A stretch of DNA of 64,000 nt, from IMG/VR virus record IMGVR_UViG_3300045988_125893, one strand, 5' to 3'. Shown piece by piece: positions 1 through 57,150 of the stretch. Source of the DNA: a virus. The stretch's first letter is position 1. Every line of letters starts with the position of its first letter. Both the position numbers and the translations under genes were made by a program. The notes under the pieces were generated by a model. The model was not told the origin of the DNA. It was given only the letters and a program-made list of their open reading frames with translations, and searched no databases.

Positions 1-270
1 ATGGACAATATGAACGTATATGATTTTGCACCTGATTTAGATTTAAGTAAAGAAGTAGCAGGTTCCATTTTTGGGGTAAGAGGAATGGAAGGTAGTGATG
101 GTATAGTGTATGCTAAGGTAGTTAGCTGTATAGACGTCAAGGATTACAGTTGTGAGAGATGTATTTTTTATGATTGTTATAAGGATACATGTTCGTTATG
201 GGGTAGTGATAGTTGTATAGATGGGGATTGGTTTTGTAGGTACGAACAGGCTGCCATAGAGGGGGAGTAG
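1..270 (+). CDS. hypothetical small Cys-rich protein (may be 5'-partial at window edge)
   Basis: ORF track; Cys pairs CERC..CYKDTC..C..C suggest metal binding. Confidence 0.5.
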   Translation: MDNMNVYDFAPDLDLSKEVAGSIFGVRGMEGSDGIVYAKVVSCIDVKDYSCERCIFYDCYKDTCSLWGSDSCIDGDWFCRYEQAAIEGE

Positions 271-275
271 GCGGC

Positions 276-332
276 GTCTTGGGCTAAGGCCTGCGGTTGT
301 AGGTGAAACGTAGGTCGGAGCAGAGCCGGGAC
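276..332 (+). other. imperfect long stem-loop E0 carrying the conserved loop motif GTGAAACGTAGG
   Basis: gtcttgg(276-282) pairs ccgggac(326-332) with G-U pairs; inner ctgc/gcag; loop motif shared with hairpins E1-E5. Confidence 0.35.
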
Positions 333-375
333 AGTTTATTGTGGAACGTAAAAATAAAAAGGAGGAGATAGCGAT

Positions 376-456
376 ATGAAAAAGGCATTTAAGATATTTT
401 CTATTATGTTCGTCATAGAAATAGTGCTGATAGCTATTTTAGATGCTATGGCGTAA
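376..456 (+). CDS. micro-ORF, 26 aa hydrophobic peptide MKKAFKIFSIMFVIEIVLIAILDAMA
   Basis: ATG at 376 preceded by aaaaaggaggagatagcgat (textbook SD, 7-nt spacer); lies in 330-nt structured noncoding region. Confidence 0.25.
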   Translation: MKKAFKIFSIMFVIEIVLIAILDAMA

Positions 457-497
457 GGGAGAAAAATTTCTTCATTAATTTTCTTATGCTTTAGACA

Positions 498-529
498 AAG
501 TGCTCCCGTCTGCGAAGATCGGAGCACTT
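498..529 (+). other. stem-loop E1: 9-bp stem aagtgctcc/ggagcactt, 14-nt loop cgtctgcgaagatc
   Basis: perfect complementarity read directly; loop shares CTG-GAAGAT core with E3/E4. Confidence 0.6.
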
Positions 530-534
530 GCTTT

Positions 535-603
535 ATGGGATTCATGGTGCGGTAGGTCGGTTCGATTCCGGCGATCTCACACAATATTAAAAACAAATGA
601 GGT
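535..603 (+). promoter_or_regulatory. tRNA T-arm/acceptor-like minihelix plus conserved leader, copy 1
   Basis: tgggatt(535-541)/gatctca(573-579) acceptor-like pairing around gtcgg-TTCGATT-ccggc T-arm; ~85% identical to 1806-1849; ends at ATG 604. Confidence 0.4.
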
Positions 604-1008
604 ATGTTAAAAGAAGAATTTGAAGACTTTATTAAAAGAGAGGTAAGTGATGAACTTTACAAAGATATAGAGGTGGTGTATAATGTTCTGCCTGAATATA
701 TGGATAAGTTGTATTTTGCAGACGCTATATTAAAAGATGTAGGGAAGACTGTAAATGTTTTGTCGGCTTTAGGAGTACACATACGTGAATTGAATAACGC
801 ACGCATAATCGAAAAAGAAAAGATTAGATCGTGTGCGTATGATTTGATACATAAGGCTCATGACGAAGATGATTTAACAGCAAGGGAGATTGCTGTTAAA
901 TTGATAGGAGAAAGGGAAACGGTAGCATATACTGTAAGGGAAGGTCTGCCATTATGGGAACAAGATAAAAAGTTTATAATAGAATTAATGAAGGAGGAAA
1001 GAAAATGA
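604..1008 (+). CDS. hypothetical protein
   Basis: ORF track 134 aa; SD-like tgaggt upstream. Confidence 0.6.
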   Translation: MLKEEFEDFIKREVSDELYKDIEVVYNVLPEYMDKLYFADAILKDVGKTVNVLSALGVHIRELNNARIIEKEKIRSCAYDLIHKAHDEDDLTAREIAVKLIGERETVAYTVREGLPLWEQDKKFIIELMKEERK

Positions 1009-1352
1009 AAGATGGCATTACATTGCATCCAGAACATGGATTGAACCCGTCTATAGAAGTCTGCATGATATGTGGTGCAGAGATGGGCATTGCCTTATTA
1101 GGGAATAATATTAAAGGTCAGGCGCCGCATCATATATGTACGGGCGGAGTATGTGACGATTGCAAAAAGATAATAGATGATGGTGGTTGTTTTATTATCG
1201 AGGTTGAAGATGGTTCAGATCAAAAGAATCCGTATCATACAGGAAGATATTGTGCGATAAAGAAAGGGGTAGCAAAGAAAATGTTTGGAAAGGAGCATAG
1301 TATTGTGTACATGGAAAAGTCTGCATTCAGTCAAATGATACCACAAAAATGA
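1005..1352 (+). CDS. hypothetical zinc-binding protein (CMICG...CDDC)
   Basis: ORF 115 aa; AAGGAGG SD upstream; ATGA overlap with previous gene. Confidence 0.6.
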   Translation: MKDGITLHPEHGLNPSIEVCMICGAEMGIALLGNNIKGQAPHHICTGGVCDDCKKIIDDGGCFIIEVEDGSDQKNPYHTGRYCAIKKGVAKKMFGKEHSIVYMEKSAFSQMIPQK

Positions 1353-1675
1353 AGAAGGATATGTTTACAAAAGAAGAAAGATTATTTATATGGAAACAAG
1401 TATATGATATAATCAATAGGTCAGAGAATGGGGAATACATATGCATTGCATTAAAAAATGTAGTATTTTATTTTTTCAAAAAACATAAAGAAATAGAAAT
1501 TATGAGTTTAGATGAAATGGTGAGAATATATTTCCCGGAATTGAGAGCAAGGAGAAGTATGGCTACAGAACCAGAGGAAATATGGAGGATATATGGATGG
1601 TTTGGTTGTATTAGTCCAGAAACGAAGGAGGTGAGACTGAATATTGTAAAAGATATTATAAAAGAATTAGAATAG
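1349..1675 (+). CDS. hypothetical protein
   Basis: ORF 108 aa, ATGA overlap. Confidence 0.6.
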   Translation: MKKDMFTKEERLFIWKQVYDIINRSENGEYICIALKNVVFYFFKKHKEIEIMSLDEMVRIYFPELRARRSMATEPEEIWRIYGWFGCISPETKEVRLNIVKDIIKELE

Positions 1676-1721
1676 TATTTTTGTTAACCTATTTTATTCA
1701 TCAAATTAAGTTTTGGGTTTT

Positions 1722-1759
1722 GGCATGTCGGTTCGTGAGGATAGGCATGCCTATTTTTA
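1722..1759 (+). terminator. stem-loop E2 (ggcatg/catgcc, 18-nt loop tcggttcgtgaggatagg) followed by tattttta
   Basis: perfect 6-bp GC stem plus T-run after gene ending 1675; loop motif GTGAGGATAGG. Confidence 0.55.
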
Positions 1760-1805
1760 TGTCATAGAGGGATGACGCGGCGTGCCGGCATGTATGTGCC
1801 GGTTC

Positions 1806-1849
1806 TGGTTCGATTCTGGGCATCTCACAAACAATAAAACAAAAGAGTT
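1806..1849 (+). promoter_or_regulatory. tRNA T-arm-like conserved leader, copy 2 (ctggTTCGATTctgggcatctcacaaacaataaaacaaaagagtt)
   Basis: near-identical to 556-603; preceded by hairpin gccggca/tgccggt (1784-1803); ends at ATG 1850. Confidence 0.4.
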
Positions 1850-2083
1850 ATGAGAATATACAAGAATGATATTATAAAGGCGTCAGCGATAAGCACCAGC
1901 GACGACAGGGGATTATTACTGTGTTCAATAACAGATTCGGGATTCACGTCTATAGCTGGTGTAATATCGGCTATTAAAGACAAGTTGCCAAACAAAGATC
2001 ATAAGAAGATGGTTTTTGAAATTTTGAATGATACGAAAAAAGAGTACGGAAGATATAATAATTGCGGAGGAAAAGTGTTATGA
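1850..2083 (+). CDS. hypothetical protein
   Basis: ORF 77 aa directly after conserved leader. Confidence 0.5.
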   Translation: MRIYKNDIIKASAISTSDDRGLLLCSITDSGFTSIAGVISAIKDKLPNKDHKKMVFEILNDTKKEYGRYNNCGGKVL

Positions 2084-2295
2084 GAAAAAATATAAAGAGC
2101 TTTTTATTGCCTTTAATATTGGCGAGTATGGTTGATGATCCTTATAGAGTAAGACGTATTCATAGTAACAATCATCCTAAACCAGTAAAAAGGGATGAAA
2201 AAAACAGGATAGAGAGGGAGTTTGATATTAATGGAAAGAAAATAATGGCTTATTCAAGAAAGGATGCCATTAAAAGATTAAAACATAAGAAGTAG
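2062..2295 (+). CDS. hypothetical basic protein
   Basis: ORF 77 aa. Confidence 0.45.
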   Translation: MRRKSVMRKNIKSFLLPLILASMVDDPYRVRRIHSNNHPKPVKRDEKNRIEREFDINGKKIMAYSRKDAIKRLKHKK

Positions 2296-2341
2296 AAAAC
2301 GGATTTTTATGTTAATGTTAGTTTTTTCATTTTTATTGAGA

Positions 2342-2382
2342 GGAGCGCCGGCCTGTGAAGGTATGCGCTCTTTGTATTTGTA
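2342..2382 (+). terminator. stem-loop E4 (ggagcgc/gcgctct, loop cggcctgtgaaggtat) plus ttgtatttgtat
   Basis: 7-bp stem with one G-U pair; 16-nt loop with conserved CTGTGAAGGTA. Confidence 0.55.
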
Positions 2383-2404
2383 TAATGCATAAAACAATAA
2401 TAAT

Positions 2405-2659
2405 ATGACAGAGAATAGTATAGACGTAAATATCGTACCTGTAAAGAATGGTATGAAACGTGTTGTGGTATCATATTACCATTATTCACGCAAGGAGAAA
2501 GATCGCATGAGTTCTCAAACGGATTACGTGTGGGAAACAGGGAATGAAGAGATGTTTAAATACTTTGAGGCCAGGAGGACAAAAGTATTTTATAGTCAGA
2601 TTCGTGCCATGTGTAGATTCTATGGCAAGAAAAATGTACGTAAATACAAAAAGCTATGA
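2405..2659 (+). CDS. hypothetical protein
   Basis: ORF 84 aa. Confidence 0.5.
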   Translation: MTENSIDVNIVPVKNGMKRVVVSYYHYSRKEKDRMSSQTDYVWETGNEEMFKYFEARRTKVFYSQIRAMCRFYGKKNVRKYKKL

Positions 2660-3465
2660 TATTAAAAACGACAACCAACGAGTTTTGTTTCATCAGCGTA
2701 AGTTTCTATGAAACAATAGCGGATCCTCGTCATTTCTTTGAACAGGATTATGAAGAGATGCCAGAATACGAGGAAGAAGCAGATTTTGATTTTGATTCTT
2801 ATTGCAATAAGTTTATTCCTTTTGTACAGGAATGGGCGAATAAGGTGGGCGAACACCTTTACGGATATGGTGTGAATAACATAAAGGTAACATCGGTCGG
2901 ACATCCGAGTGAATATAATTATGATACTGATTGGATGAATGTGGAGGTAGAATTTTGTGATAGATGGAGGCAAAGGATGTTATTTAATAGTGGTAAGATT
3001 GTCAATGATGATAAATGCAAGAAGTATATGGAAGCCAATTATAGGTCAGTATTAGGATACATCTTTTTAGGACCTGAAGATTTAAAGGAATTTGAAAAGG
3101 AAATAATAGAAAAGAAGTCGGATTCGAAATATGATATAACAATATTATTAAATATGTATCTAACTTTGGCTTTTGTAAAAGAATTTGGATTTGAAGCCGA
3201 AGAAGCGTGGAATGAAATAACAGGACATGCTTACGAATGTTTATCGTATTCTGATTTTGCAACAATAGAAACACTTATACCAGAAGGTTCGGAGTATTTA
3301 TTCAAAGACATTTACACGGCAAAGGCCGATGACTTATATCATCATGTCCTGGACAAATTTGGATGGGCGTGGCGTGATCCGAAATATAAGTCAGAAACAG
3401 AATTATGCGCGATGCTAAAGTGGGCAAAAGAAAAAGGCTTGACCATTGAAGAGTTAAGTATTTAA
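2656..3465 (+). CDS. hypothetical protein
   Basis: ORF 269 aa, ATGA overlap. Confidence 0.65.
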   Translation: MILKTTTNEFCFISVSFYETIADPRHFFEQDYEEMPEYEEEADFDFDSYCNKFIPFVQEWANKVGEHLYGYGVNNIKVTSVGHPSEYNYDTDWMNVEVEFCDRWRQRMLFNSGKIVNDDKCKKYMEANYRSVLGYIFLGPEDLKEFEKEIIEKKSDSKYDITILLNMYLTLAFVKEFGFEAEEAWNEITGHAYECLSYSDFATIETLIPEGSEYLFKDIYTAKADDLYHHVLDKFGWAWRDPKYKSETELCAMLKWAKEKGLTIEELSI

Positions 3466-3478
3466 TTGTTAAACATAA

Positions 3479-3525
3479 GGCAGTAGTGGTGCGTGAGTAT
3501 AGGTGCTGCCGTTAAATTATTTTAT
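3479..3525 (+). terminator. stem-loop E5 (ggcagta/tgctgcc, loop gtggtgcgtgagtatagg) plus T-rich tail
   Basis: 7-bp stem (one G-U); 18-nt loop with GTGAGTATAGG. Confidence 0.5.
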
Positions 3526-3528
3526 AAT

Positions 3529-3777
3529 ATGAAAAAGGAAGAGATTCAAACTATTTTATACACAATCAAAGAAGGAGACAGTATTAAGATCAAAGTACAA
3601 GACAAAAGTGAAGAAATAAGACTGCGGGATCATGTAAGAAGAACGCAGAAATACGGATACAGGTTTTGTTTGTCTCATTTGCATGATGGAATTTTCTATT
3701 TGGAGAAGTTGGAAGAGGGAGATAAAGATAAATACTATAGAGTAATCAACAGAGGAAATGGAAAGACCGGAGTATAA
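3529..3777 (+). CDS. hypothetical protein (start moved to ATG 3529; track ORF 3493 begins inside hairpin E5)
   Basis: ORF track frame; MKKEEIQ start after terminator. Confidence 0.5.
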   Translation: MKKEEIQTILYTIKEGDSIKIKVQDKSEEIRLRDHVRRTQKYGYRFCLSHLHDGIFYLEKLEEGDKDKYYRVINRGNGKTGV

Positions 3778-4051
3778 TAAGCTACGCAAAATGGCTAAGA
3801 CTACTCCAGGTCTGATAGTGGACGAGGCGCAAAACATGATGCGTGTATCGCTGTATGATAATGGAGAACTTAAGAAGATCGTAGTAGTAATGAAATGCGA
3901 TTCTTTTTTACAGTCAAAAAGTAACATAGAAAAGATAATGTTATTATCATCTTCTATAGAAGATAGAAAAAACAAAGAAAAAAATAAAACAAAATCAGAA
4001 AATGAACAGAATAACAAAAATAAGAGAAGAAATAGGAGGAAAACAGGTTGA
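3758..4051 (+). CDS. hypothetical Lys/Asn-rich basic protein
   Basis: ORF 97 aa; low complexity C-terminus. Confidence 0.4.
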   Translation: MERPEYNKLRKMAKTTPGLIVDEAQNMMRVSLYDNGELKKIVVVMKCDSFLQSKSNIEKIMLLSSSIEDRKNKEKNKTKSENEQNNKNKRRNRRKTG

Positions 4052-4385
4052 TTTGACCTTTTATGGGCGTTTTTGCAGCCTTATTGAAGGTGATAGAAAG
4101 ATAATACTAAAGGCAATAAAAAACGGTCGTAAGGAAGGTGTAATCGGAGCCATTCAGCCTGGAAGACATGATAGAATTTGGACCACATGGGCTATTGCTT
4201 TTGAGGATCTGAAGGTAGGGGATACGGTAGAGTTTAGTACATCCGGGAAATACAATCCAGGTTTTCATTCTACAGAAAAGTATGTAGGATGTGTAGAATG
4301 GATAAAAGGATCGGAATGTGCGATAAAAACCGGCAAAGGGATGGCAGTAGTATTAATTAAACACGTGGAAAGGGTAGTAAGATGA
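4002..4385 (+). CDS. hypothetical protein
   Basis: ORF 127 aa. Confidence 0.55.
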   Translation: MNRITKIREEIGGKQVDLTFYGRFCSLIEGDRKIILKAIKNGRKEGVIGAIQPGRHDRIWTTWAIAFEDLKVGDTVEFSTSGKYNPGFHSTEKYVGCVEWIKGSECAIKTGKGMAVVLIKHVERVVR

Positions 4386-4663
4386 AATTGAGAGAATTTG
4401 TAGAACTCTTTGATAAGAATGATGTAAAGGATTTGTTTAAGTCATTATCTTTATGTATGGAATATGTAAGGATAGATTTACATGTATTTAATGTAGGTGC
4501 TTATGTTACGTGCCTGTACAGTAATGATCTTGAACAGCTTTCAACGATGAAAGGGTGCGCTATATACGCGATAGTAGAAGTACCATGTTTATTTGAGGCA
4601 TTTATGGAATATGCTTCACCGGAATTGAAAGCATATTATGATAAACTAACGAAAGAAGTGTGA
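4382..4663 (+). CDS. hypothetical protein
   Basis: ORF 93 aa, ATGA overlap. Confidence 0.55.
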   Translation: MKLREFVELFDKNDVKDLFKSLSLCMEYVRIDLHVFNVGAYVTCLYSNDLEQLSTMKGCAIYAIVEVPCLFEAFMEYASPELKAYYDKLTKEV

Positions 4664-4664
4664 C

Positions 4665-5147
4665 ATGAAAGAGGAAGTAGAACGGATAAAGAAGTTGGTA
4701 GGCATAGATCATAATAGATGGGAGCAACCTTGTACATGTGATAAATGCAAGAACATGTGTAAGATTCCTTGTATTGGTACGCCAAAAGACATAGAGGCTA
4801 TCATAGATGCCGGATACGCTGATAGGTTAAAAGAAACAATGTGGATGGTAGGGTATCTTGCAGTGAAGGAAAAACCAATAGCGATGATCCAGCCGACAGA
4901 GAAAGACGGGTGGTGCGCATTCCGCCGGCCAGACGGTCTCTGCGAGCTGCATGACCGTGGACTAAAGCCGACCGAAGGAGTTCTGGCTTCCTGTAAGATG
5001 ATTGAAGAAGACAATGTTCCAACATACGAAACGTCTGTACTTAGAGCAGTGGCTAATGAGTGGGTTAAGGTGGAGAACTTTGGAGATATAATGAGGGTCG
5101 TTTTTAAATTTTTGCATGAAAATGAACGTAGAAAACAAATTAGATAA
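4665..5147 (+). CDS. hypothetical Cys-rich protein (CTCDKCKNMC...C motif, possible Fe/Zn chelating domain)
   Basis: ORF 160 aa; Cys cluster near N-terminus. Confidence 0.6.
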   Translation: MKEEVERIKKLVGIDHNRWEQPCTCDKCKNMCKIPCIGTPKDIEAIIDAGYADRLKETMWMVGYLAVKEKPIAMIQPTEKDGWCAFRRPDGLCELHDRGLKPTEGVLASCKMIEEDNVPTYETSVLRAVANEWVKVENFGDIMRVVFKFLHENERRKQIR

Positions 5148-5526
5148 AGTAGTTAAGATCCTAAAAGAAAAAGGATTTGTGGTATATAGAAAGGGCGGAA
5201 AGGAGCCGGGTGTATTTTACGCCAAAGAAGGTGACAGCCGGATAGGATTCGTTTATCCCAACAACGGATATATATATGATAGAATAAAAATGTGGTCTTT
5301 TTCAAGGATATATAAACCACATAAGAAAACCGGGTCTTCGTGTTTAATGAGCGTCAGCGACGAATTTACGATAGAGAATGCGATTAAGAACATAGAGGAT
5401 AGACTGTGGGTAAATTATGTAAAAGACGGTAACAGAAAACGACCAGAAGAATACAATAATATAAGAGAATTTGTTGGTAGCTTCACTAAATTCTACAACT
5501 CTGTAGAATTAGTTGAGGTTAAGTAG
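5116..5526 (+). CDS. hypothetical protein
   Basis: ORF 136 aa. Confidence 0.55.
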   Translation: MKMNVENKLDKVVKILKEKGFVVYRKGGKEPGVFYAKEGDSRIGFVYPNNGYIYDRIKMWSFSRIYKPHKKTGSSCLMSVSDEFTIENAIKNIEDRLWVNYVKDGNRKRPEEYNNIREFVGSFTKFYNSVELVEVK

Positions 5527-5547
5527 TTTTCCATGTAAGTTAGTTAC

Positions 5548-5583
5548 CGGCACTGGTCTGTGAAGATAGGTGTCGTTTTTTTT
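5548..5583 (+). terminator. stem-loop E3 (ccggcac/gtgtcgg, loop tggtctgtgaagatag) followed by T8
   Basis: 6-bp stem with one G-U pair, 16-nt conserved loop, tttttttt at 5576-5583. Confidence 0.7.
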
Positions 5584-5600
5584 AAGAAAGGAGGATAAAG

Positions 5601-5732
5601 ATGGAGAAAAGAGACAAGGAAATGCCTTACGAGGTAATCATACAGGAGAGAAACAAAGTGGATTTATACGGTAACGTAGTATATTATATCTATTGGTTTG
5701 ATAAATATGGGAACGATATTACAAACGAATGA
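5601..5732 (+). CDS. micro-ORF, 43 aa (MEKRDKEMPYEVIIQERNKVDLYGN...)
   Basis: ATG preceded by aaggaggataaag SD; not in track because <60 aa. Confidence 0.35.
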   Translation: MEKRDKEMPYEVIIQERNKVDLYGNVVYYIYWFDKYGNDITNE

Positions 5733-5939
5733 AAATTCTGGAGCAAGGGTCCGAAAAAGAAATATGATAGAGTCAATCGCTATTTAACGGATAGTTGGCT
5801 AAAGGAATACTGTAAGAACAACAATTTAAAAATAAGTAGAATAAAGGAATGAAGCCGGGAAAGCATGCTATGATAACAAACGAGTATGGTGTCTTGGATA
5901 TTATAAAAGAAAAATTTGACAACATAAATATAATGGAAT

Positions 5940-6308
5940 ATGGATCTAAATAAATTGTATAAAGAAATAGAAGAAGCGGAGGTCAATCTGAATGCAAAAA
6001 GATTAAAGTACATCAAAGAAGCATTAACGGAGAACGGTGGAAGCGTAAAGCTAAAATTTAAAGAGTTTAAAGAATGGCAAGAAGCTAATAACGTGTTTGA
6101 CTTTGATGATCAGTTTCCAGTGATAATAGAAATTGATGGAAATTCTATGTATTTAACGGAAGTGTATGTCAAAAAAAACGATTTTCGTGTAGTCATGCTG
6201 GATTATACTGATATGACTTTTTATGATTATAGCAATCCAGGGGAAAATGAACAGGTTGCTTATTTTATTAACTATTGCTTAAATCAAGACAAAGATGGGA
6301 AAGAGTAG
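5940..6308 (+). CDS. hypothetical protein
   Basis: ORF 122 aa. Confidence 0.55.
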   Translation: MDLNKLYKEIEEAEVNLNAKRLKYIKEALTENGGSVKLKFKEFKEWQEANNVFDFDDQFPVIIEIDGNSMYLTEVYVKKNDFRVVMLDYTDMTFYDYSNPGENEQVAYFINYCLNQDKDGKE

Positions 6309-6483
6309 AAAAGATTATGAGAAGTATCTTAACTCAATATCTCCAGATAGAGACGATGAGGCATGGATCATTGGAGGAAAGAACAGGTATTGCGGTAGAG
6401 AGAATTATGGCACTATGATCAAAAGGTATGATCCTATTGGTTTTAACGTGGGATACAGGGAGTGGGTGGAACAGCCAGAGTAA
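6295..6483 (+). CDS. hypothetical protein
   Basis: ORF 62 aa. Confidence 0.5.
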   Translation: MGKSRKDYEKYLNSISPDRDDEAWIIGGKNRYCGRENYGTMIKRYDPIGFNVGYREWVEQPE

Positions 6484-6485
6484 GG

Positions 6486-6539
6486 CGGAGCCCGCCCTGG
6501 CATGAGGTCAGCCTGGCTGTTTGTGGCCAGGCCCATATA
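6486..6539 (+). terminator. tandem GC hairpins (ggcgg-agc-ccgcc; gcctggc-tgtttgtg-gccaggc) with duplicated cctggc competing for one gccagg
   Basis: read directly; follows stop of 6295..6483. Confidence 0.5.
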
Positions 6540-6856
6540 TTAATCAGATAGTGAACAGCGAAAACAATATAAATATGAAAAATAAGTTAGTTCTTAATAG
6601 TGCAGAGGATGCTGAAATAATTTCAGTAAGATTAGATCCAGAGAGGTTTCCTATTGCATATGCAAACAAAGTAGAATGTTTGATGCTTTCCGGCTTAAGC
6701 GAAGAAGAAGCAAAGAAGGAGGCGATGATGCCAATAGACCTTGAATTGTATTATGAGGTAGGTGTAGGATTGATGGCCGTAGAGCCAGGGGCAGTAGAAT
6801 CTGGAACAATATACAGTCCATATACAAGAGAATTGTATGATAATGCAAAAGTTTGA
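6521..6856 (+). CDS. hypothetical protein (true start may be internal Met at ~6578)
   Basis: ORF 111 aa; first codons overlap the hairpin. Confidence 0.5.
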   Translation: MWPGPYINQIVNSENNINMKNKLVLNSAEDAEIISVRLDPERFPIAYANKVECLMLSGLSEEEAKKEAMMPIDLELYYEVGVGLMAVEPGAVESGTIYSPYTRELYDNAKV

Positions 6857-7332
6857 TAATTATGAGAGTAGAAGATTTAACTAAGTTTGAAGAAGAATGT
6901 CCCACCATAGTAGTATTTAATACATATATGGATATTAGGGTTCCACTAACGAAGAAATGGAAGAAAATCATTGACAAGAGAGAAGATAAGCCAAACACGT
7001 ATCATAATAATTTGATTAATTATATTTCAGAACAGATAGAGTTGTCCGGATTCAACATGAAAAGCGTCGGGAACCTATTAATAAAGAAAATAGTTTTCAA
7101 TAAAAACAATTACTACAGGTATAACAACATAGGAGGATTCCCTATAACTATCAACGATTTGGGATATTGGGATAAAAACAGAGTAAAGCTAAATGAAGAT
7201 TTTCACACTGTTAGGCTGTTTAATACGGTAAGTGTATATGGATTGATATTTGGATCCATAAAACAAAATAATTTCATTATGCTTGAAAACGATATAATGC
7301 AGATTAAGGTTGGCGGCATAACTTACATCTAA
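6853..7332 (+). CDS. hypothetical protein
   Basis: ORF 159 aa. Confidence 0.55.
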   Translation: MIIMRVEDLTKFEEECPTIVVFNTYMDIRVPLTKKWKKIIDKREDKPNTYHNNLINYISEQIELSGFNMKSVGNLLIKKIVFNKNNYYRYNNIGGFPITINDLGYWDKNRVKLNEDFHTVRLFNTVSVYGLIFGSIKQNNFIMLENDIMQIKVGGITYI

Positions 7333-7343
7333 AGGAATAGATC

Positions 7344-7811
7344 ATGAATTTATTATACGTAGTTGAATCAGGAGACTATAAGTACCTCGTCTTCGATGAA
7401 ATGCCTGATAAAATTAGTACAAAGTACGGAGATGATACCATTATTGGAAGGATAGGAGGTATATTCTATGATTTCCTTGCAAAGAGAAATGAGAGAAGAG
7501 AAGCTTTCGGAGGTAGAAAGTTCGATATCGTACTTGACAACGGAGAGATAGAGAAGTGTGAAGGGCAATGGTGGGATGCGGTGACAGAGAGAGCAAGAGA
7601 AGAATTGGAAAAAGAGGGAAATCCATTTTCCAAAATGATGTTGATTGGTGTTTCTTCAGTAGATAGATTATCGGATTGCTATGTGTATTATGGGTTATGG
7701 GCATCCAAAAGTAAGATTGAAGAAATGATAGCTGACTACAAAGGTCGTATATATGAGTATTACGAATTTAAGGAAGAGATCATTAATAAGATAAGGCAAT
7801 TATATACCTAA
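7344..7811 (+). CDS. hypothetical protein
   Basis: ORF 155 aa. Confidence 0.6.
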   Translation: MNLLYVVESGDYKYLVFDEMPDKISTKYGDDTIIGRIGGIFYDFLAKRNERREAFGGRKFDIVLDNGEIEKCEGQWWDAVTERAREELEKEGNPFSKMMLIGVSSVDRLSDCYVYYGLWASKSKIEEMIADYKGRIYEYYEFKEEIINKIRQLYT

Positions 7812-7822
7812 AATAATAGTTT

Positions 7823-8137
7823 ATGACATTCAAAGAATTTATGCAGGAGAACGGCTATGACCTAATAACCACCTTTTGGGGAGATTTCAGCATAGCCGAC
7901 AAGTATGGTATAGCAGGTGTCAAAGATACCTACAAAAGAGCGTTTAATGAATGGAAAGACGATTATAAGTTCTTTACAGAATTGACGCTGGTATTGAATC
8001 ATAAAATCTGGCAGCATTATGAAAGCAATCGTGAACTGGCTGCATTGTATGACCGGTTGTGGCGGGAAGCTGACGAGTATGCCATGAACAACTTTAAGGG
8101 AGAAGAGCTTGATTATTATTACAGAGTAACAGATTAG
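7823..8137 (+). CDS. hypothetical protein
   Basis: ORF 104 aa. Confidence 0.55.
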   Translation: MTFKEFMQENGYDLITTFWGDFSIADKYGIAGVKDTYKRAFNEWKDDYKFFTELTLVLNHKIWQHYESNRELAALYDRLWREADEYAMNNFKGEELDYYYRVTD

Positions 8138-34890: not shown

Positions 34891-35268
34891 ATGAAAAAAG
34901 AAGTTACAATCAAGGAGGACATGGCTGCGTTTTATAGAAATGCAGGAAAGGAACTATGGATTTATAACGGACTTTTTAGAAACAAGGTATTGTCTATAAA
35001 AAAAGATAAAGCCATTATCATGTGTGAAACTGATGCTGAATATTCTGTGCTGATAGAAGATAATCAGTTTATTGCCGTAGCAAAAAACATGGATTATGAT
35101 TACTGCTGCGCATTCACATTAGGTAATGCCGAGGCTTATGGAGATCGTATGGGTATATCGTGCAGTGTATGCTTGCTTGAGGATAACGAAGATAAAGCAA
35201 GAGAGATGCTAAAGGAGGCAATAATAGAACTTTCAAAAAACAGTAAAATAGATTGCGATGGGCTTTGA
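34891..35268 (+). CDS. hypothetical protein
   Basis: ORF 125 aa. Confidence 0.55.
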   Translation: MKKEVTIKEDMAAFYRNAGKELWIYNGLFRNKVLSIKKDKAIIMCETDAEYSVLIEDNQFIAVAKNMDYDYCCAFTLGNAEAYGDRMGISCSVCLLEDNEDKAREMLKEAIIELSKNSKIDCDGL

Positions 35269-37627
35269 ACTTAGACCTTACCAAAAAGAGGCAGTAGATG
35301 CCGGGCTTAAGTTTCTTACAGGAAGATCTAAGAAGCCTGGCATAATAGTAGCTCCATGCGGATGTGGAAAGAGCCTTCTGATATCCAAGATAGCACATGA
35401 AATAAATAGACCGACGTTAGTGTTACAGCCCTCAAAAGAGATTCTGGAGCAGAATTATGCAAAGGCTGTATCATTCGGTTCTAAACCTACCATATATTCT
35501 GCCTCATGTGGCGTAAAGGAATTATCGGCTATGACTTATGCTACACTTAAAAGCATAAAGAAAGACGTAGCAAGGTTGAAAGATATAGGGATAGATACGA
35601 TCCTGATAGATGAATGTTTTACTGGAGATGTGGAGATATTAACCGAAAAAGGGTTTGTTCAATTTAATAAATTAGAACAAAATGTAAGGGTAGCTCAATA
35701 TGATAAAGGATTTATTGATTTTGTGATGCCTATCAGATATATCAACAAGCCGCACGATGGTGACATTTGTTTACTTCATATTAAACATGGAATAGATCTT
35801 CCAGTGACAAAGAATCATGATTTCTTGTTTTATGATAAGAAATACGGTAAATGGTATAAACAGAAAATATCTGAAGCTTCTTTTAAATCTGGGAAATGCA
35901 TTCCGGTATCAGGGATATCACGTGTAGATAGCGAAGGCGATTCCTTATCTGACATGGAGAGGTTGTTTATAGCAACACAAGCAGATGGAAGTATTCATAA
36001 CAAAAACGAAAATGACACAATTATATCTTTCTCATTTTCAAAAGAAAGAAAAATAAAAAGGATTCATTATTTATGTAAGAATGCAAACGTTGAGATATGG
36101 GAAGTTAAAGGAAAAATAGAAAAAGAAGGAAATACGAAAAACAGAAGAAGGTTTATGGTAAGAATGCCAAAGTTTACAACAAAGGATATTCGAAATCATA
36201 TATCATTCCCAATGTCTTACGAAAAAGCAAGATCGGTAATAGAAGAGTGTTCTTTATGGGACGGCAGTATTATAGGGAATACGATGCTTTATTATTCATC
36301 GACCGATAAAACGCAGGTGGATTTTTATAATTCTGTAGCCACAATAGCTGGCCACGGATGTTATGTTTCTATTGAAAAGGATGGCAGAAAAGAAACATAT
36401 TCGGATGTTTATAGGCTTTTTATAACAAAAGACAAAAAACTAAGAGGCACTAACTCTATGTATAAACGATATGAAAAATACACCGGACAAGTTTATTGCG
36501 TAGAGGTTCCATCTGGATGTATAGTACTAAGATATAAAGGATATACATTTGTTTCTGGAAATTGTCATTCAGGATATTCTCCTGAAGAAGGTTCTGAGTT
36601 TATAGAGTTTATGAGCGAGTTTCCCGAGGCGAAGGTGCTGGGCTTCACCGCCACTCCCTGCCGCCTCCGAACCTACAGTTCCATGCTGGAAGGAAACTAC
36701 AGCAAGCTCAATATGCTGACGAAAGACGAGCATAATTTCTTCAAGAAAATAGTTCATGTGACTCAAATACAAGAATTAACTTCTCAAGGGTTTTGGTGTC
36801 CACTTAAGTACGAACGATGGTCTTTTGATGAATCGGCTCTGATGTTGAACAGCACCGGAGCTGAATACACCAACGAATCTATTAAAGAAAGTATTGTACG
36901 AAATGGCTTAAACAACTCTATCTACAAGCGCCTTCTTCAACTTATGAACGAACGTAAAGCCATTTTGGTTTGCATGGATTCTATTGAATCATGTAATAGA
37001 ATATCAGAGTTCATGAATGCCAAGATGGGAGCCATAACCGGTGTCGTAACATCGCTAACAACCAAAAAGAAAAGAGAGCAAATTATATCCGATTTCAAAG
37101 AAGGAAAGTTGAAGGTGGTTTTTAATTATTCAACGCTTGCTACCGGATTTGATTTTCCTGAACTTGATTGCGTGATGTTTGGTCGCCCAACATTCTCATA
37201 TTCAACATATTACCAAATATTAGGCCGCGCCGTCCGCATCCATCCTGACAAGAAAGAGGCGCTGATAGTTGATTGCTGCGACAACATGAGGCGTTTTGGT
37301 CGGATAGAAGACTTGACAATCGAACAATTCCCTTCTAAGGGCTGGTGTATGTTTGCCGGAGATCAACTTCTGTCCAATATAAGGATGGGTGATATTATTA
37401 CCAAAGACGAGATCCTTCGCCGGGCAGCCTCGCTTAAATCTGTGAATGGAGATGGTAGGAGAGAAGACGATCTTGACAGTATAATAATGTGGTTTGGAAA
37501 ATATGAAGGAATTAGATTCAAGGACATACCGGTGTCGTATTTTAGGTTCTTGGCTGAGAATATGGCAATAAAACCAGGAGACAGGAAAGAAAAGATTATC
37601 GAATATTATAATAGGATAAAGGCATGA
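35258..37627 (+). CDS. SF2 DExH-box helicase (ResIII/UvsW-like) interrupted by an intein
   Basis: LRPYQKEAV (Q motif), APCGCGKS (Walker A), DE|CH motif II restored after intein removal, TATP motif III, QILGRAVR motif VI. Confidence 0.85.
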   Translation: MGFELRPYQKEAVDAGLKFLTGRSKKPGIIVAPCGCGKSLLISKIAHEINRPTLVLQPSKEILEQNYAKAVSFGSKPTIYSASCGVKELSAMTYATLKSIKKDVARLKDIGIDTILIDECFTGDVEILTEKGFVQFNKLEQNVRVAQYDKGFIDFVMPIRYINKPHDGDICLLHIKHGIDLPVTKNHDFLFYDKKYGKWYKQKISEASFKSGKCIPVSGISRVDSEGDSLSDMERLFIATQADGSIHNKNENDTIISFSFSKERKIKRIHYLCKNANVEIWEVKGKIEKEGNTKNRRRFMVRMPKFTTKDIRNHISFPMSYEKARSVIEECSLWDGSIIGNTMLYYSSTDKTQVDFYNSVATIAGHGCYVSIEKDGRKETYSDVYRLFITKDKKLRGTNSMYKRYEKYTGQVYCVEVPSGCIVLRYKGYTFVSGNCHSGYSPEEGSEFIEFMSEFPEAKVLGFTATPCRLRTYSSMLEGNYSKLNMLTKDEHNFFKKIVHVTQIQELTSQGFWCPLKYERWSFDESALMLNSTGAEYTNESIKESIVRNGLNNSIYKRLLQLMNERKAILVCMDSIESCNRISEFMNAKMGAITGVVTSLTTKKKREQIISDFKEGKLKVVFNYSTLATGFDFPELDCVMFGRPTFSYSTYYQILGRAVRIHPDKKEALIVDCCDNMRRFGRIEDLTIEQFPSKGWCMFAGDQLLSNIRMGDIITKDEILRRAASLKSVNGDGRREDDLDSIIMWFGKYEGIRFKDIPVSYFRFLAENMAIKPGDRKEKIIEYYNRIKA
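35615..36562 (+). other. intein (316 aa) with LAGLIDADG-like homing endonuclease core, inserted in helicase motif II
   Basis: begins CFTGDVEILTEKG (block A), VTKNH (block B TxxH), LFIATQADGSIH (LAGLIDADG-like), ends FVSGN followed by +1 Cys (CHS). Confidence 0.7.
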
Positions 37628-45244: not shown

Positions 45245-45278
45245 ACCAGTTCTCTATCATCGCTGACTGAGAACTGGT
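45245..45278 (-). terminator. 10-bp hairpin accagttctc/gagaactggt with T-rich tail on minus strand
   Basis: read directly; downstream of giant minus-strand gene. Confidence 0.6.
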
Positions 45279-45415: not shown

Positions 45416-48400
45416 CTACTTGTAGCTCACATCATCGTCTCCTTCTGAATCAGGAGTGGCACCGATGAAAAACATCATTGACTTGTTGTTCGTCTGCTGC
45501 CACCAGTTATAGGCACGTGCTACGTCTTCCGGCGTCTTAATGTTATACCATTGTTTGATAAACGTCTGTTTAGCGAGTTGTCTAAATAACTTAGACTCAC
45601 CTTTATATGTACCAGATGTTACTTTATCAAGTGAGTAGTTCCTGAGATCGGTGAGATCCTTCAGTTTCCGTCCCATGACAAATGGGTCATTAATGATATC
45701 CACCACATTAAGCTCCATAATAAACGGCATCTGTGAAGCTATTTCATTTATGGTTCTAAATCCTACATAAGATCCGAATTGAGTAAGCCAGCTTTCCTCG
45801 TTTTCATCATCATCACGCCATCCGGCAAGAAGCATAGACACGGCCTGCATGATGAGGAACGTGCCGGCATAAACACTGAGGCGTTTAAGATTAGTCTTTT
45901 CCACCTCACCCATCTTATCTTTATTTTCGTTCCAGGCATCTATGATATTTTTCATACCAGGCTCGGAAGCTAAGCTAAATGTTTTAGCTATCATATTCTT
46001 TAACGTAATTGACAGCCCTTCCTCTTCTTGCATTGTCTGGAAATTGAATCCCCTTCTTTTCCACAGACGTTGAGCCGCCAGCACCAGCCATCCTCGGTGG
46101 GCAGTCATGAACCTGGCTATCCAGTTACGTGATGCGGCGGTTCGGTTTTCTTCATTCAAAGATCCGTTACATATCTGTGACAAGCTACGAACCTGATTAC
46201 GGGTTATAGCCATCTGGGTTTCAACTTCCTCAACAGTAACACCCGATCCTGGTTTCACAACCACCTTGCCGTCTACAACATCTACCATACTCCATAAAGT
46301 ACGATCTCTTAATGCATCCCATTCTCTTTTTATAGTGCTCTGTTCTTTATTGCGTTCTTTTTCCATCTTGAAATCCTGGAACGTGTAGAACCGACCTTTG
46401 TAATAACGAACGTTATCCATCGTAGCGATCATAACCTGCGGATCAAGAGGGTAGTTCATGATTTCCATAAAAGCATACATCGGTGAACGCATTAAGGTCC
46501 TGGCCGCCCTATTATATCCGGCACCATACATACGATTTCGGATATTGAATATCCCCATTCTCTCACCTATGACATATAATTTGCTTTTTCTATCTATGTC
46601 TCCGGTTTCTGCTATACAAGATGGCGCAAGACGTGAAAACTCAGCCGATGCGTATTTAAGGGAATCTTTGCTTATATATTGTCCTACGGCAGATTCCATG
46701 ATGAGGTTAATATGACCTGTCAGAGCGCCGGTAGCTGCCACAAACGGGGACAGCGCTAAGTTCATGACCGACATAAACCTTTCAACGGCCATCATAATTC
46801 TTGTAAGATCTATCGTGTATCCACCGATGTTAACCGTAAGTTTCTTGGTGTTCATCCTAATGCCATAATAATGGTCATTAAAGAAGTCTCTAAACATCTG
46901 GTATGCTTGAGTTGCCTCAGCTTTCTTACCGCCTTCAAATTGCTTATTCAGTAACATCTGCTCCAGTCCTTGGGCAAGCTCTATAGACTTCTGCTTTTCG
47001 TTGTATAACGATGATTGCATCATAAGCATCGAATAAGAATAACCAAAATCATGAGATACGTCATCTTGGTTCTCTAATTCATATATGTAGTATTTAGGTA
47101 TAGACCTAATCCTATCTTCTGGATCATATACTTCCCCTTGTCTGGTTTTACCGTATAGAGAATCGTCTACTCTGTCCAGACAGAGATCTGATACAAAATT
47201 ACGAACCGTATTTTTGAAGTTGATACCCAATCCCTCCATACGTTCTATATCTTGTTTGGATATCTGTGGAATAGCATACAAATTGGGGCTCTGCTCTTTG
47301 TATAAGGAAAGGGATTGTCTTTTTATTTCCTTAAGTTTTTGAATCATATTCCATTGCTCTACGTTTTTAGTAGCAATCTCATTACCATCAGCATCATATC
47401 TAATGCCGAAGTCATTGAAATACGATTCATCACGATACAGGCTCTTCTTGGGCATACGATAACCATACCCATGATCTTTTACATAATCTGGGTTACGACC
47501 GCTATTTTCAGCTTCAGATTCAGCCACCCACGCTCTTGCAGGGTCGAAAGATAGGTACGATATATTCATACCATAATCTTGTGTGGATGTCCCGTTCTGT
47601 ACGTCTTTAACCATCTGTGCCACGTCTATCTCACCTCGACCTATTTTACCAAGCATAGCCGCATATCCGGTAGGAGCCATGCGTTTGTAATATGAAAAGA
47701 CTTGACTTCTGGCAAATTCATTAACAATAGCATTAGCCTCTTCTATACCTGATTCTCTTGTGTTATTTAAAAACAAGCTGGCCATCTTAGTATTGACAGC
47801 ATTCCTAAAATCTCTACCGTCTAATTCTTTGTTTATTCCAAGCTTTTCTGACAAGTAGTTGGTTTCAGATACAGTAAACAAATATCGGTTATCAGCAGCC
47901 TTAAATAGTTTATCCCTTAAGGCTTGAATCCTTTTTGCTTTCTTTGCCGTAGTATGACGTTGCACAAACTTCCATTCCACTTCCTTGGAGTCAGCAAGAG
48001 CATTTAAATAAGATTGATTGACTTCGTTTTCAGCCTTACTGCTTTTAGTAAGGTATTTATCAATATCTTCAAGACCCACCATCTTAGCATAATCTATTAA
48101 AATAGCGTAATCGGTTTCAATAGCTTCAGATGCAGCCCTAAAAGCATCTCTTTCAGATGAGGTAAATGTCGCTTCATTGATTTCTCCGATGTCAGCCACA
48201 TCGCGGTTATTCCCAATTATTTCCTTGATGATAGCCCTGTTTTTTTCTATATCTTTCACAATAGCTTCTACGTCTGTCGCATCTCTATCACTTGTCGTAG
48301 AATTAATGATATCATGCGCCATTTTAAGATACGAAGCCTTGTTGTTTGATTCGGTGCGTGCCGACTGATCTGACTCTATATCATTCCAAAACTGATCATT

Positions 48401-51832: not shown

Positions 51833-51890
51833 GATAAAACATTTTTGTTATGAGACAAAGGTAGCCAAAAATCAAGCATATCATAAAAAA

Positions 51891-51930
51891 TTAAGCCATC
51901 TAACTTCTCAGTCTGATGGCTTAAAAATAA
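51891..51930 (-). terminator. hairpin taagccatc...gatggctta followed on minus strand by ttttttatga, upstream of giant gene start
   Basis: 9-bp perfect stem read directly. Confidence 0.6.
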
Positions 51931-51973
51931 TATGAAAAAAAATTATAATCTGACGCAAATCGTCAAGTTACGC

Positions 51974-52296
51974 TTATGCATTGTATTTGTACCCATTTCT
52001 ATGAATAAACCTTCCCGATTCAAAACGTTCAATATCTTCAGGGCAAATAGGGCCCGAATCTTCTCTCCTGGCTTCAAACCAAAGCCCTGGCTTGCGAAGT
52101 CGGCAAGTTATGATATAATTGAAGCAATTGTGTGTAAAATGGAAAACAGATCCTACAGGGAAATATCTATCAGCTTGAAATACGATTCTTTTTCGTTTAG
52201 TATCAAACGTGATATCCCCTACTATCTTAGCCACGTAATAGCTTCTGCCATTTAACGTTTCATCTGTTTGTGGTATCCAATAATAACCTTTTGTCA
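51974..52296 (-). CDS. hypothetical protein (start moved to internal Met MTKGYYW; track ORF start 52366 would span a terminator hairpin)
   Basis: ORF track frame. Confidence 0.45.
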
Positions 52297-52318
52297 TGCC
52301 ACAAATATATAAAAAAAG

Positions 52319-52349
52319 TCGGACAAGATACATGTCCGACCTTTTTTTA
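52319..52349. terminator. hairpin gtcggac-aagatacat-gtccgac flanked by A7 and T8 (bidirectional)
   Basis: read directly. Confidence 0.7.
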
Positions 52350-52529
52350 CTTTGATTCGTTTTCAAACCGCTTTATAAGAGAAGCAATATCATCACCACA
52401 AATAAACATCATTCTACGTTCTTCTTTTGGTTTATGAGACGTTGGGATGGTTTTGTTTATTTTAATCTGATTCGCCAGACCTCTGCCTAAACGAATATCA
52501 GCTTTTTTACCTTTAATGTTGAACTTCAT
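52347..52529 (-). CDS. hypothetical small basic protein
   Basis: ORF 60 aa ending at terminator. Confidence 0.4.
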   Translation of the reverse strand: MKFNIKGKKADIRLGRGLANQIKINKTIPTSHKPKEERRMMFICGDDIASLIKRFENESK

Positions 52530-52842
52530 AGATTATTTGTTTAAACAGACCAATTCCGTCTATTATAATATGACCGCTTCGCATACGACCATTATTAAGA
52601 TTGTAAAGGAAATTAAAACCACTTTCTTTTTCTTGTCTTTCAAAAGAACTGATATCCTTTCCTCTACGAGCTCTTCCAAAAGCCTTCTTGAACAACTTTC
52701 CTCTGAAGGTCTTGACAAGGTTCTTGGTAGCTTTATTACCGGCTCTTATCGTTACTTTCCTTGCCTGGTTTTCTGAGACAAAACTGCTTCGGAAAATATA
52801 CGATGCTGCTGCTTGTATATCTTGTTTAGTAATCATATGCAT
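52513..52842 (-). CDS. hypothetical basic protein
   Basis: ORF 109 aa. Confidence 0.5.
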   Translation of the reverse strand: MHMITKQDIQAAASYIFRSSFVSENQARKVTIRAGNKATKNLVKTFRGKLFKKAFGRARRGKDISSFERQEKESGFNFLYNLNNGRMRSGHIIIDGIGLFKQIIYEVQH

Positions 52843-53189
52843 ATGCCAAACATTTCTTTCAGAATACTGATCTTTATTCCGTATATCAATTTCATCTCAT
52901 CTCTATCATATACGTCAAAAAAGGATTTACTGGGGTCCTTTGGATTTGCGTTCAATTGAATTATGCAATTACCAGTATAAACCTTAAGCCTATAATTATC
53001 GGAGTATATATCCTGCATGGTCTCAAATGTCTCAATTAAATTTTCAACAAGAACTCTGTTAAATGAAAAAGATTCTTTGCCATCACCTTTAAATGTGATA
53101 TGATCTAAATTCTTGTTGTCAAATTCGTACTCTAACTGATTGCCGTCCATCATATCATAAAAGATTGACTTTTTGATTCTAAATCCCAT
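52833..53189 (-). CDS. hypothetical protein
   Basis: ORF 118 aa. Confidence 0.55.
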   Translation of the reverse strand: MGFRIKKSIFYDMMDGNQLEYEFDNKNLDHITFKGDGKESFSFNRVLVENLIETFETMQDIYSDNYRLKVYTGNCIIQLNANPKDPSKSFFDVYDRDEMKLIYGIKISILKEMFGICI

Positions 53190-53205
53190 ATTATTTTGTT
53201 TTTAG

Positions 53206-53511: not shown

Positions 53512-53514
53512 AAA

Positions 53515-54539: not shown

Positions 54540-54562
54540 AATTTGTTTTAAATTAGTTGTTA

Positions 54563-55195: not shown

Positions 55196-55196
55196 A

Positions 55197-55839: not shown

Positions 55840-55872
55840 AGTTGGAAATTTTATAGTAAAACATAATAATTA

Positions 55873-57016: not shown

Positions 57017-57113
57017 CGTTTAATTATTTAAAAGCAAATATAGTTACAATTCTATGATTATACAATATTCATAAATTAATTAGATTTAAAATAATACAAT
57101 GTATATTAAAATA

Positions 57114-57150
57114 AAAACCCGATACGTTAAAGCATATCGGGTTTGGCATC
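57114..57150 (-). terminator. hairpin aaacccgata-cgttaaagca-tatcgggttt followed on minus strand by tttttatttt
   Basis: read directly; also plausible IS left-end hairpin. Confidence 0.6.

Follow-up and report, generated by a model that had tools for sequence, protein, structure and literature searches.

A 64,000-nt stretch of viral DNA from the IMG/VR record IMGVR_UViG_3300045988_125893, hereafter the window, carries a family of short hairpins, five of which lie between the genes of its first 5.6 kb. The window is from an epsilon crAss-like phage. Its first 5.9 kb matches one end of the linear, 151-kb genome of crAssE-Sib (OR575929) with 89.6% identity, a phage of human gut origin that is classed with the epsilon crAss-like phages; hairpins, terminators, and promoters go unmentioned in the crAssE-Sib paper. 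Genes are oriented on the plus strand up to ~45 kb and on the minus strand beyond. Few viruses of the human gut are as abundant as crAss-like phages, and the way in which their early transcripts are delimited, processed, and regulated is almost undocumented; for phage phi14:2, the sequences upstream of early transcripts yielded no common motif (10.1101/2020.03.07.982082). Of ~190 related IMG/VR contigs, 80 were used for the comparison of orthologues.

The five early hairpins, E1 to E5 (Table 1), share one fold that comprises a variable lower stem of 7–9 bp, a 1×1 mismatch, a G·U pair, three further base pairs, and a GNRA tetraloop. What an earlier prediction for the same DNA (hereafter the original prediction) had taken for a conserved loop of 14–18 nt actually consists of these apical elements. 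The mismatch of E1–E5 is R·A (G·A in most), with C·C in E1 and a 2×2 loop in E4; the tetraloop of E1–E5 is GUGA, or GCGA in the case of E1, and the five lower stems are unrelated in sequence. Each of the five folds stably, with folding energies of −14 to about −18 kcal mol−1 (z −2.7 to −3.4) for E3–E5. The coordinates originally given for E1, E2, E3, and E5 were right, and all four are stable hairpins between open reading frames (ORFs) on the coding strand; E4, first placed at 2342–2371, required correction at both ends.

A sixth proposed member, E0 (276–332; window 268–340), does not belong to the family: its fold is different, its loop has 13 nt, no model matches it, and its look-alike string GTGAAACGTAGG is not kept in relatives, where GTGGAAC or GTAGGGC is found instead. 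The predicted family thus proved real, with five rather than six members in this range. E0 itself is a separate conserved GC-rich element with a long stem (GGCCUGCG/CGUAGGUC) and a variable 13-nt loop; it has GUAGGUCGG in common with the tRNA-like element that follows E1, and no covariation was found in it.

Table 1 Coordinates of the hairpins and tRNA-like elements in the window
Feature	Position	Strand	Structure and sequence	Downstream sequence and spacing
E1 hairpin	498..529	+	AAGUGCUCC/C/GUCU-GCGA-AGAU/C/GGAGCACUU	few U in tail; tRNA-like element begins 6 nt downstream
E1t tRNA-like minihelix	536..580	+	acceptor stem UGGGAUU/GAUCUCA with G3·U70, 13-nt linker, T-arm GUCGG-UUCGAUU-CCGGC, discriminator C, no anticodon arm	
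E2 hairpin	1722..1751	+	GGCAUGUC/G/GUUC-GUGA-GGAU/A/GGCAUGCC (fold and model match)	UAUUUUUAUG; tRNA-like element begins 16 nt downstream
E2t tRNA-like element	1768..1828	+	acceptor AGGGAUG/CAUCUCA (1-72 = A·A), hairpin CCGGCA-UGUAUG-UGCCGG, T-arm UCUGG-UUCGAUU-CUGGG, discriminator C	
E4 hairpin	2340..2373	+	9-bp lower stem, 2×2 loop (CG/AU), GCCU-GUGA-AGGU	tail GUAUUUGUAU
E5 hairpin	3479..3510	+	GGCAGUA..G/GUGC-GUGA-GUAU/A..UGCUGCC	tail GUUAAAUUAUUUU, poor U-tract; next ATG 3530
E3 hairpin	5548..5575	+	CGGCACU/G/GUCU-GUGA-AGAU/A/GGUGUCG	U8; classic intrinsic-terminator form
45.2-kb hairpin	45245..45278 (model match 45248–45275)	−	..AGUUCUC/A/GUCA-GCGA-UGAU/A/GAGAACU..	UUCUUUUGUUAUG
51.9-kb hairpin	51891..51924 (model match 51894–51921)	−	..AGCCAUC/A/GACU-GAGA-AGUU/A/GAUGGCU..	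UUUUUUAUG

A covariance model built from E1–E5 (five-seed model) re-found these copies with 33–39 bits and additionally located two sites on which it had not been trained, the 51.9-kb copy with 21.5 bits and the 45.2-kb copy with 20.7 bits. The ten-member model R2 scored these two copies with 33.4 and 32.7 bits, respectively, and returned seven window matches at or above 27.7 bits, the next best match reaching 11.8 bits; E1 obtained 33.9 bits from the five-seed and 31.0 bits from the ten-member model, and for several of the models training and test sequences were related. Under a strict structural definition, six matches are present in the window compared with 0.07 per dinucleotide shuffle, far beyond chance. 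The models also match copies in other phages. The claim that no copy occurs after 5.6 kb is wrong given the two minus-strand copies, and a restriction to an early transcription unit is not supported. All seven window copies are intergenic and lie on the coding strand, and E1–E5 follow their stop codons at a distance of 13–46 nt rather than directly. The family has no counterpart in Rfam 15: nothing reached gathering thresholds in a covariance search of the whole window, and searches of 1–7000 and 260–1850 at E values up to 10 returned spurious weak matches only. A link to retrons or ribozymes, as had been suggested, is supported neither by this result nor by the size of the element, a 28-nt hairpin with no further conserved context. 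A simple terminator scan of 1–8000 found 0 sites because the upper stem is shorter than 5 bp and the stem and loop rules of the scan are unsuited to an interrupted hairpin.

The two minus-strand copies flank the gene of a 2138-aa virion protein. The 45.2-kb copy is located at the 3′ end of this gene in a convergent intergenic region with no gene downstream of it, and the 51.9-kb copy is located upstream of the gene and downstream of the ORF 51974–52366. The 2138-aa gene was considered and rejected as the DFDxD catalytic protein of a virion RNA polymerase (RNAP), since it contains no DxDxD motif and matches the PHROG category ‘virion structural protein’. Some 20–45 nt upstream of the 51.9-kb hairpin, at 51930–51975(−), there is a small inverted repeat along with a sequence similar to TTGACG-N13-TATAAT, both also conserved in crAssE-Sib; if the latter is a promoter, the hairpin with its U6 would attenuate the 2138-aa gene close to that promoter. 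At E5, a coding sequence of crAssE-Sib (L001 4553–4837, window 3493–3777) has been annotated from a GTG inside the GUGA tetraloop; the downstream ATG given in Table 1 is the likelier start.

To assess selection on the structure, we assembled ten non-orthologous copies, seven from the window and three from the rest of crAssE-Sib. Among them 97.3% of cells are paired, both sides change in 10 of 11 pairs, G9·U20 is present in 10/10 copies, and the 3′ A of the mismatch is conserved; since the copies beyond the first five were found by a structure model, this set favours pairing. In a slid-partner control of the same copies, pairing falls to 32–42%. The orthologues in the 80 related contigs vary in the same manner. 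For E1, the lower-stem variants GUGCUCC/GGAGCAC, AUGCUCC/GGAGCAU, and ACGCUCC/GGAGCGU represent compensatory changes from G–C to A–U and from U–A to C–G; E5 variants with GUAU replaced by GCAU stay paired, E2 has orthologue variants as well, and the loop is always GNRA (GUGA, GCGA, or GAGA). We further examined 102 distinct lower stems from hairpins chosen by their apex and by at least 5/7 Watson–Crick pairs; their non-Watson–Crick positions comprise 106 G·T, 10 A·C, and 18 others. As each G·T pair would be an A·C mismatch on the complementary strand, the fold is selected on the sense strand, and the hairpin most likely acts as RNA, a function as sense-strand DNA being less likely.

These data support the original view of an element with a conserved top and a compensating stem that is recognised rather than being a plain terminator. 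The lower stems are free to change, while the apex, with its destabilising mismatch and invariant wobble pair, recurs on dozens of unrelated stems. Stability alone is therefore insufficient as an explanation and a specific reader is implied: the apex is most likely a recognition surface for a host or phage factor, such as a nuclease, a terminator or antiterminator factor, or an RNA-binding protein.

The family extends beyond the window. In the complete crAssE-Sib genome, the models found orthologues of both minus-strand window copies and further copies in different settings: one 3′ of a Ro60-like gene with a U7 tail, one between tRNA-Gln and tRNA-Arg that lies 6 nt before tRNA-Arg and lacks a U-tract, and a variant copy 8 nt before tRNA-Met, likewise without a U-tract. 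A link to Ro60 and Y RNA was tried and rejected, because the TROVE locus of crAss001 has no copy; the hairpin is not known to resemble the Ro-binding helix either. The phage crAss001, from a different family (Steigviridae), contains a single perfect copy at 1880–1907 (32.7 bits) whose apex is identical to that of E3; it is situated between tRNA-Arg and tRNA-Glu, 7 nt before tRNA-Glu, and has no U-tract. No copy was found in the first 14 kb of Cellulophaga phage phi14:2.

We scanned IMG/VR with one 16-nt apex sequence (GUCU/AGAU), excluding E3 orthologues, and obtained at least 120 matches. Arms with at least 6/7 pairs flank 107 of the 120 matches listed, corresponding to 44 distinct 28-mers, at a chance expectation for complementary arms of ~1.3% by our own calculation. 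By tblastx, 47 of the 120 listed fragments have no similarity to either reference crAss-like genome, and the motif therefore probably extends to other phage lineages, as judged from these sequence comparisons. A scan of 185,579 species genomes yielded 24 matches, of which ~15 form hairpins, all on Bacteroidales contigs and mostly with U-tracts; one folding match is a phage tRNA-array fragment within a ‘Spirochaetia’ metagenome-assembled genome (MAG), and matches in other phyla do not fold. Only one extra copy was present across 108 kb of these Bacteroidales loci; hosts thus rarely carry the motif, and phages are enriched for it. Full-text literature searches for crAss-like and Bacteroides terminators, hairpins, tetraloops, and the apex sequence returned no description of it. 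The hairpin family is thus absent from Rfam, widespread in phages of gut Bacteroidales, and apparently undescribed.

Two side observations concern other RNAs in motif-bearing sequences. In five Bacteroidaceae MAG contigs (L208, L213, L217, L222, and L229), a chromosomal hairpin with a U-tract is preceded by a second conserved hairpin (AGUAUUGGUAGAUUAAUACU), which in L229 falls between two divergent genes. Together, the two hairpins resemble the 3′ terminus of a conserved, as yet unannotated small RNA; the four of these loci that were scanned had no Rfam match at gathering thresholds. In motif-bearing phage contigs, Rfam identified DUF2693-FD RNA motifs and a RAGATH-1 hammerhead ribozyme (L187 9281–9329, L089 9610–9658, L201 1229–1277, and L099 5649–5733), none adjoining the hairpins.

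Selection of the same apex in distant phages, on 44 different 28-mers among the matches listed, is also what a dedicated protein-binding site would predict, whose apex is read either to govern read-through, by antitermination or attenuation at the series of early terminators, or to guide endonucleolytic processing by an RNase III-type or other nuclease. This explanation overlaps with the reading that we favour below, except that recognition and not end-capping would be primary. The invariant G·U pair, the 3′ A of the mismatch, and the GNRA loop persist amid free covariation, the mismatch lowers stability and leaves terminator strength as no explanation, and five copies succeed one another over 5.6 kb of an operon in which the spacing of the ORFs leaves no space for new promoters. 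We nevertheless consider a binding site of this kind rather unlikely as the primary function: no candidate binding protein was found, no conserved linear motif of the boxA type accompanies the hairpins upstream or downstream, stems of 12–14 bp are short for classical RNase III, and copies exist in bacterial chromosomes as well as beyond the early region of the phage. A role in processing or regulation in the wider sense, as originally proposed, is still plausible.

The sequence that follows the hairpins falls into distinct types. Clear U-tracts follow E3, E2, and the 51.9- and 45.2-kb copies, and that of E4 is moderate, so the original statement that the stem-loops are mostly followed by T-tracts holds in part; it fails for E1 and E5. 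The hairpins E1 and E2 are each followed by an element (E1t and E2t, Table 1) that had escaped the original prediction, as had the coupling to tRNA and tRNA-like genes altogether. In E1t, 98% of cells are paired in 14 variants, with one-sided changes only; in E2t, 92% of cells are paired in 18 variants, and a change of the T-stem from CUGGG to CCAGG retains both pairs. ARAGORN reported 0 tRNA genes in the window, and RF00005 did not match E1t or E2t even at E values up to 10. Judged by sequence, the two elements are tRNA-like and not tRNAs, in that only the acceptor stem and the canonical T-arm with its UUCGAUU loop match tRNA.

The same arrangement is frequent in other phages. In viral contigs, 24 hairpins lie 2–11 nt upstream of tRNAs called by ARAGORN. 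Using a heuristic acceptor-plus-T-arm test, we found a tRNA or tRNA-like RNA of 65–192 nt at a distance of 0–11 nt downstream (mode 4–5) in 35 of 98 distinct viral contexts, compared with 33 of 3000 random positions (1.1%), an enrichment of ~30-fold. The remaining contexts have a U-tract only (32) or neither feature (31); inspection revealed further tRNA-like cases among the latter, so that the true fraction is higher. In the U-tract-only contexts, the next ORF usually starts 20–36 nt later. Several gut phage contigs (L169, L160, L184, L192, L188, L195, and L089) carry non-canonical tRNA-like RNAs of 73–192 nt directly after the hairpin, each with a closed 7-bp acceptor stem and a canonical T-arm; one ends with CCA, most were missed by ARAGORN, and one was called as tRNA-Met with a 33-nt intron. 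In phi14:2 (L231), ARAGORN predicts a transfer-messenger RNA at 4031–4500 (tag GSSVQKLAMVA*), and a second T-arm is found at ~1826, both in long non-coding early regions; according to a preprint, two long phi14:2 intergenic stretches in roughly this part of the genome, g004–g005 and g005–g006, are transcribed more strongly than most genes.

The copies with good U-tracts suggest a simpler explanation, in which the family consists of plain intrinsic terminators whose similar tops result from common descent, gene conversion, or a general GNRA preference. GNRA loops are common in terminators, and other GUGA hairpins without the mismatch exist in this phage (window 60503–60528(−), L083 44948, and L083 6402). 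We regard plain termination as improbable, because the lower stems share no sequence while the apex is invariant, a pattern that descent alone does not predict, because copies without U-tracts lie just upstream of tRNAs within a ~30-fold enrichment of tRNA and tRNA-like neighbours, and because it is uncommon in host chromosomes to find the motif. The same window also contains ordinary terminators that have other loops, so the family is not merely a phage-wide style of terminator.

The reading that we favour, with a probability of roughly one in two, is that of a boundary hairpin that would serve as a leaky terminator and as a 3′-end cap and would be coupled to RNase P-type punctuation. The hairpins would be transcribed as boundary modules within polycistronic phage messages. 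Followed by a U-tract, a hairpin would act as an intrinsic terminator, which must be leaky since the next ORF begins 20–36 nt downstream and leaves no room for a promoter. Located just upstream of a tRNA or tRNA-like RNA, the hairpin is not a terminator; RNase P would cut at the 5′ end of the downstream RNA, and the 3′ end thus created would lie just a few nucleotides past the hairpin. In both contexts, the upstream RNA would have its 3′ end capped by the hairpin against 3′-exonucleases, neighbouring RNAs would be insulated from each other in their folding, and the early transcript would be cut into units that differ in stability. Such a shared role as cap and insulator would explain both contexts as well as the 45.2-kb copy, which has an upstream gene and no downstream gene. 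Thus, the hairpin is probably not a plain terminator but a mark of the points at which transcripts end or are processed.

Several points weigh against this reading. The U-tracts of E1 and E5 are poor, and E5 moreover has no tRNA-like neighbour. The crAssE-Sib copy L083 7000–7027 is antisense to both flanking genes. Covariation in E1t and E2t is not supported statistically in the 14 and 18 variants, because the orthologues are too similar. The IMG/VR sample derives from one apex sequence and from the matches listed, which may bias the frequencies of the contexts. The hairpins are preceded by a diffuse T-rich block (−12 to −8) that could be a promoter element, and where a tRNA begins 4–5 nt after a hairpin, the hairpin could be a leader or 5′ structure that works for the tRNA rather than for the RNA before it. 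Finally, termination, RNase P cleavage, and 3′ protection are all processes that we infer from sequence. As for promoters, an upstream search found TAnnTTTG at a fixed distance in only a handful of related contexts, and no consistent sigma-70-like promoter was found after the hairpins.

The position of the hairpins also resembles that of a promoter of a different kind. Promoters of phage N4 are DNA hairpins of the template strand with a 5–7-bp stem and a 3-nt loop upstream of +1, and the fixed spacing of 4–5 nt between the hairpins and tRNA 5′ ends resembles this geometry. The crAss-like virion RNAP could then use the hairpin as a promoter in single-stranded DNA and initiate a few nucleotides past the stem. 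Five copies in the terminal early region are oriented with transcription, early promoters of crAss-like virion RNAPs are undescribed, and the phi14:2 enzyme transcribed denatured DNA in vitro (10.1101/2020.03.07.982082). This is very improbable for the present family: the structure is selected on the non-template strand (G·T 106 vs A·C 10), so that the template-strand apex would hold A·C and T·Y mismatches, the loop has 4 nt, the 45.2-kb copy has no gene to initiate, crAss001 has a single copy and the first 14 kb of phi14:2 none, and the copies in Bacteroidales chromosomes are terminator-like.

The early region is a mosaic in relatives of the window. Compared with window 490–1830, different gene cassettes start immediately past CACA(A)ACAAUAAAA, the conserved trailer that belongs to the tRNA-like elements. 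In L045 (~711–880), the three genes that separate E1t from E2t have been lost, with the junction inside the shared GGTTCGATTC T-loop, and L072 (~5246) has a 23-nt tandem duplication within the E2 hairpin. These rearrangements, together with the phage TnpB genes, would be consistent with recombination or mobile-element sites (similar to attC, REP, or IS200/IS605 ends) that shuffle early cassettes. We give such a role for the hairpins hardly any credence. The junctions lie in or after the tRNA-like elements and not in the hairpins, the apex is conserved and the base variable, opposite to attC, core sites of the GTTRRRY type are absent, no integrase or TnpA adjoins the hairpins among the window ORFs scanned, and the tolerance of G·U pairs as well as the tRNA and U-tract contexts fit an RNA. 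For the same reasons, attC and REP hairpins were rejected as candidates for the identity of the element. With regard to mobile elements, the window contains an IS200/IS605-type transposase (TnpB-like) ORF at 56021–57016(−) that matches PHROG 506 with 6.6e-97, and crAssE-Sib has two annotated TnpB genes.

A more far-reaching and tentative form of the boundary reading, which we consider doubtful as a whole, would describe a two-part RNA punctuation in gut Bacteroidales phages: a capped hairpin (GNRA/G·U/R·A) read by a specific factor would stand 4–5 nt before an RNase P-cleaved module, either a tRNA or a minimal tRNA-like RNA. Jointly, the two parts would set where early messages end, how stable they are, and their dosage over time, and stable tRNA-like RNAs would be released. 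A comparably far-reaching reading would make the hairpin the recognition signal, terminator or promoter, of the crAss-like virion RNAP, for which such a signal has long been sought. Irrespective of this, the hairpin provides a handle for the annotation of transcript boundaries, for tRNA-like RNAs that standard tools miss, and for the search for the factor that reads the cap. As crAss001 can be cultivated and carries a perfect copy, the predictions are directly testable.

Further observations in the window concern neighbouring features. Three GC-rich hairpins that are not family members cluster at 6484–6532 after an ORF ending at 6483 (GGCGG-AGC-CCGCC, then GCCUGGCU-GUUUGU-GGCCAGGC) and, with some variation, are also conserved in relatives. 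Upstream of early ORFs are strong Shine-Dalgarno-like AAGGAGG sequences (5586–5600, also ~360–376); Bacteroidales make little use of Shine-Dalgarno pairing, and AAGGAGG is thus unusual for a phage with Bacteroidales-infecting relatives. The coding-strand GC skew is very strong, reaching +0.39, and its sign flips with gene orientation between 1–45000(+) and 46000–64000(−). The 789-aa helicase encoded at 35258–37627(+) holds an insertion of ~330 aa (residues 112–441) that is missing from the crAssE-Sib orthologue; it is probably an intein or a homing-endonuclease insertion, because it matches a segment annotated within the ribonucleotide reductase gene of Tenacibaculum phages.

Comparison with known systems places the family close to several of them. 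Like intrinsic terminators with GNRA loops, its members are GC-rich coding-strand hairpins after genes with a stable loop and, in several copies, a U-tract directly after the stem; unlike these, they have an invariant G·U pair, an R·A mismatch exactly 4 bp below the loop, and many copies without a U-tract 2–11 nt upstream of tRNA or tRNA-like genes, and with the next ORF too close for re-initiation the hairpins are no full stops. The group II intron domain 5 was rejected, as the lower stems contain no conserved AGC, the 1×1 mismatch is symmetric and not a bulge, and Rfam gave no group II matches. Similar to boxB in the nut sites of Lambda and P22, the family combines a short stem and a GNRA-type cap in early transcripts with a plausible surface for protein recognition, but boxB has a 5-bp stem, a pentaloop, a boxA partner, and ~2 copies per genome, and is not itself a terminator; with a tetraloop on a 4-bp helix above a mismatch, no conserved boxA, and no N-like protein found, a lambda-type nut site was rejected. 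The early RNase III hairpins of T7 (R0.3–R1.3) likewise occur as several related hairpins between early-operon genes with a conserved internal mismatch or loop, and in T7 the cleaved or terminal hairpin stabilises the upstream mRNA. These sites have ~20 bp or more and larger internal loops, whereas the family has 12–14 bp including a 1×1 mismatch and a GNRA cap; a T7-type RNase III site was rejected on the basis of this helix length, ~20 bp or more being required.

The promoter-early stem-loop (PeSL) cassettes of T4-type phages, reportedly described by Arbiol et al. in 2010, are similar in that repeated regulatory stem-loops flank small ORFs in a hyperplastic early region with signs of cassette shuffling and deletion. 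They differ from the present family in that here no early promoter is established, the recombination observed is between tRNA-like elements, and the motif spans distant phage lineages instead of one genome family. In MALAT1 and MEN-beta, a stabilising structure is followed by a tRNA-like mascRNA cleaved by RNase P, and mitochondrial tRNAs punctuate transcripts in a related manner. These systems are eukaryotic, their protective element is a triple helix rather than a hairpin, and RNase P cleavage is what we infer here; the analogy is one of logic and not of homology. In both cases, a protective structure lies only a few nucleotides before a tRNA-like element, processing at the 5′ end of the latter would make the upstream 3′ end, and tRNA-like units separate coding units in a polycistronic transcript.

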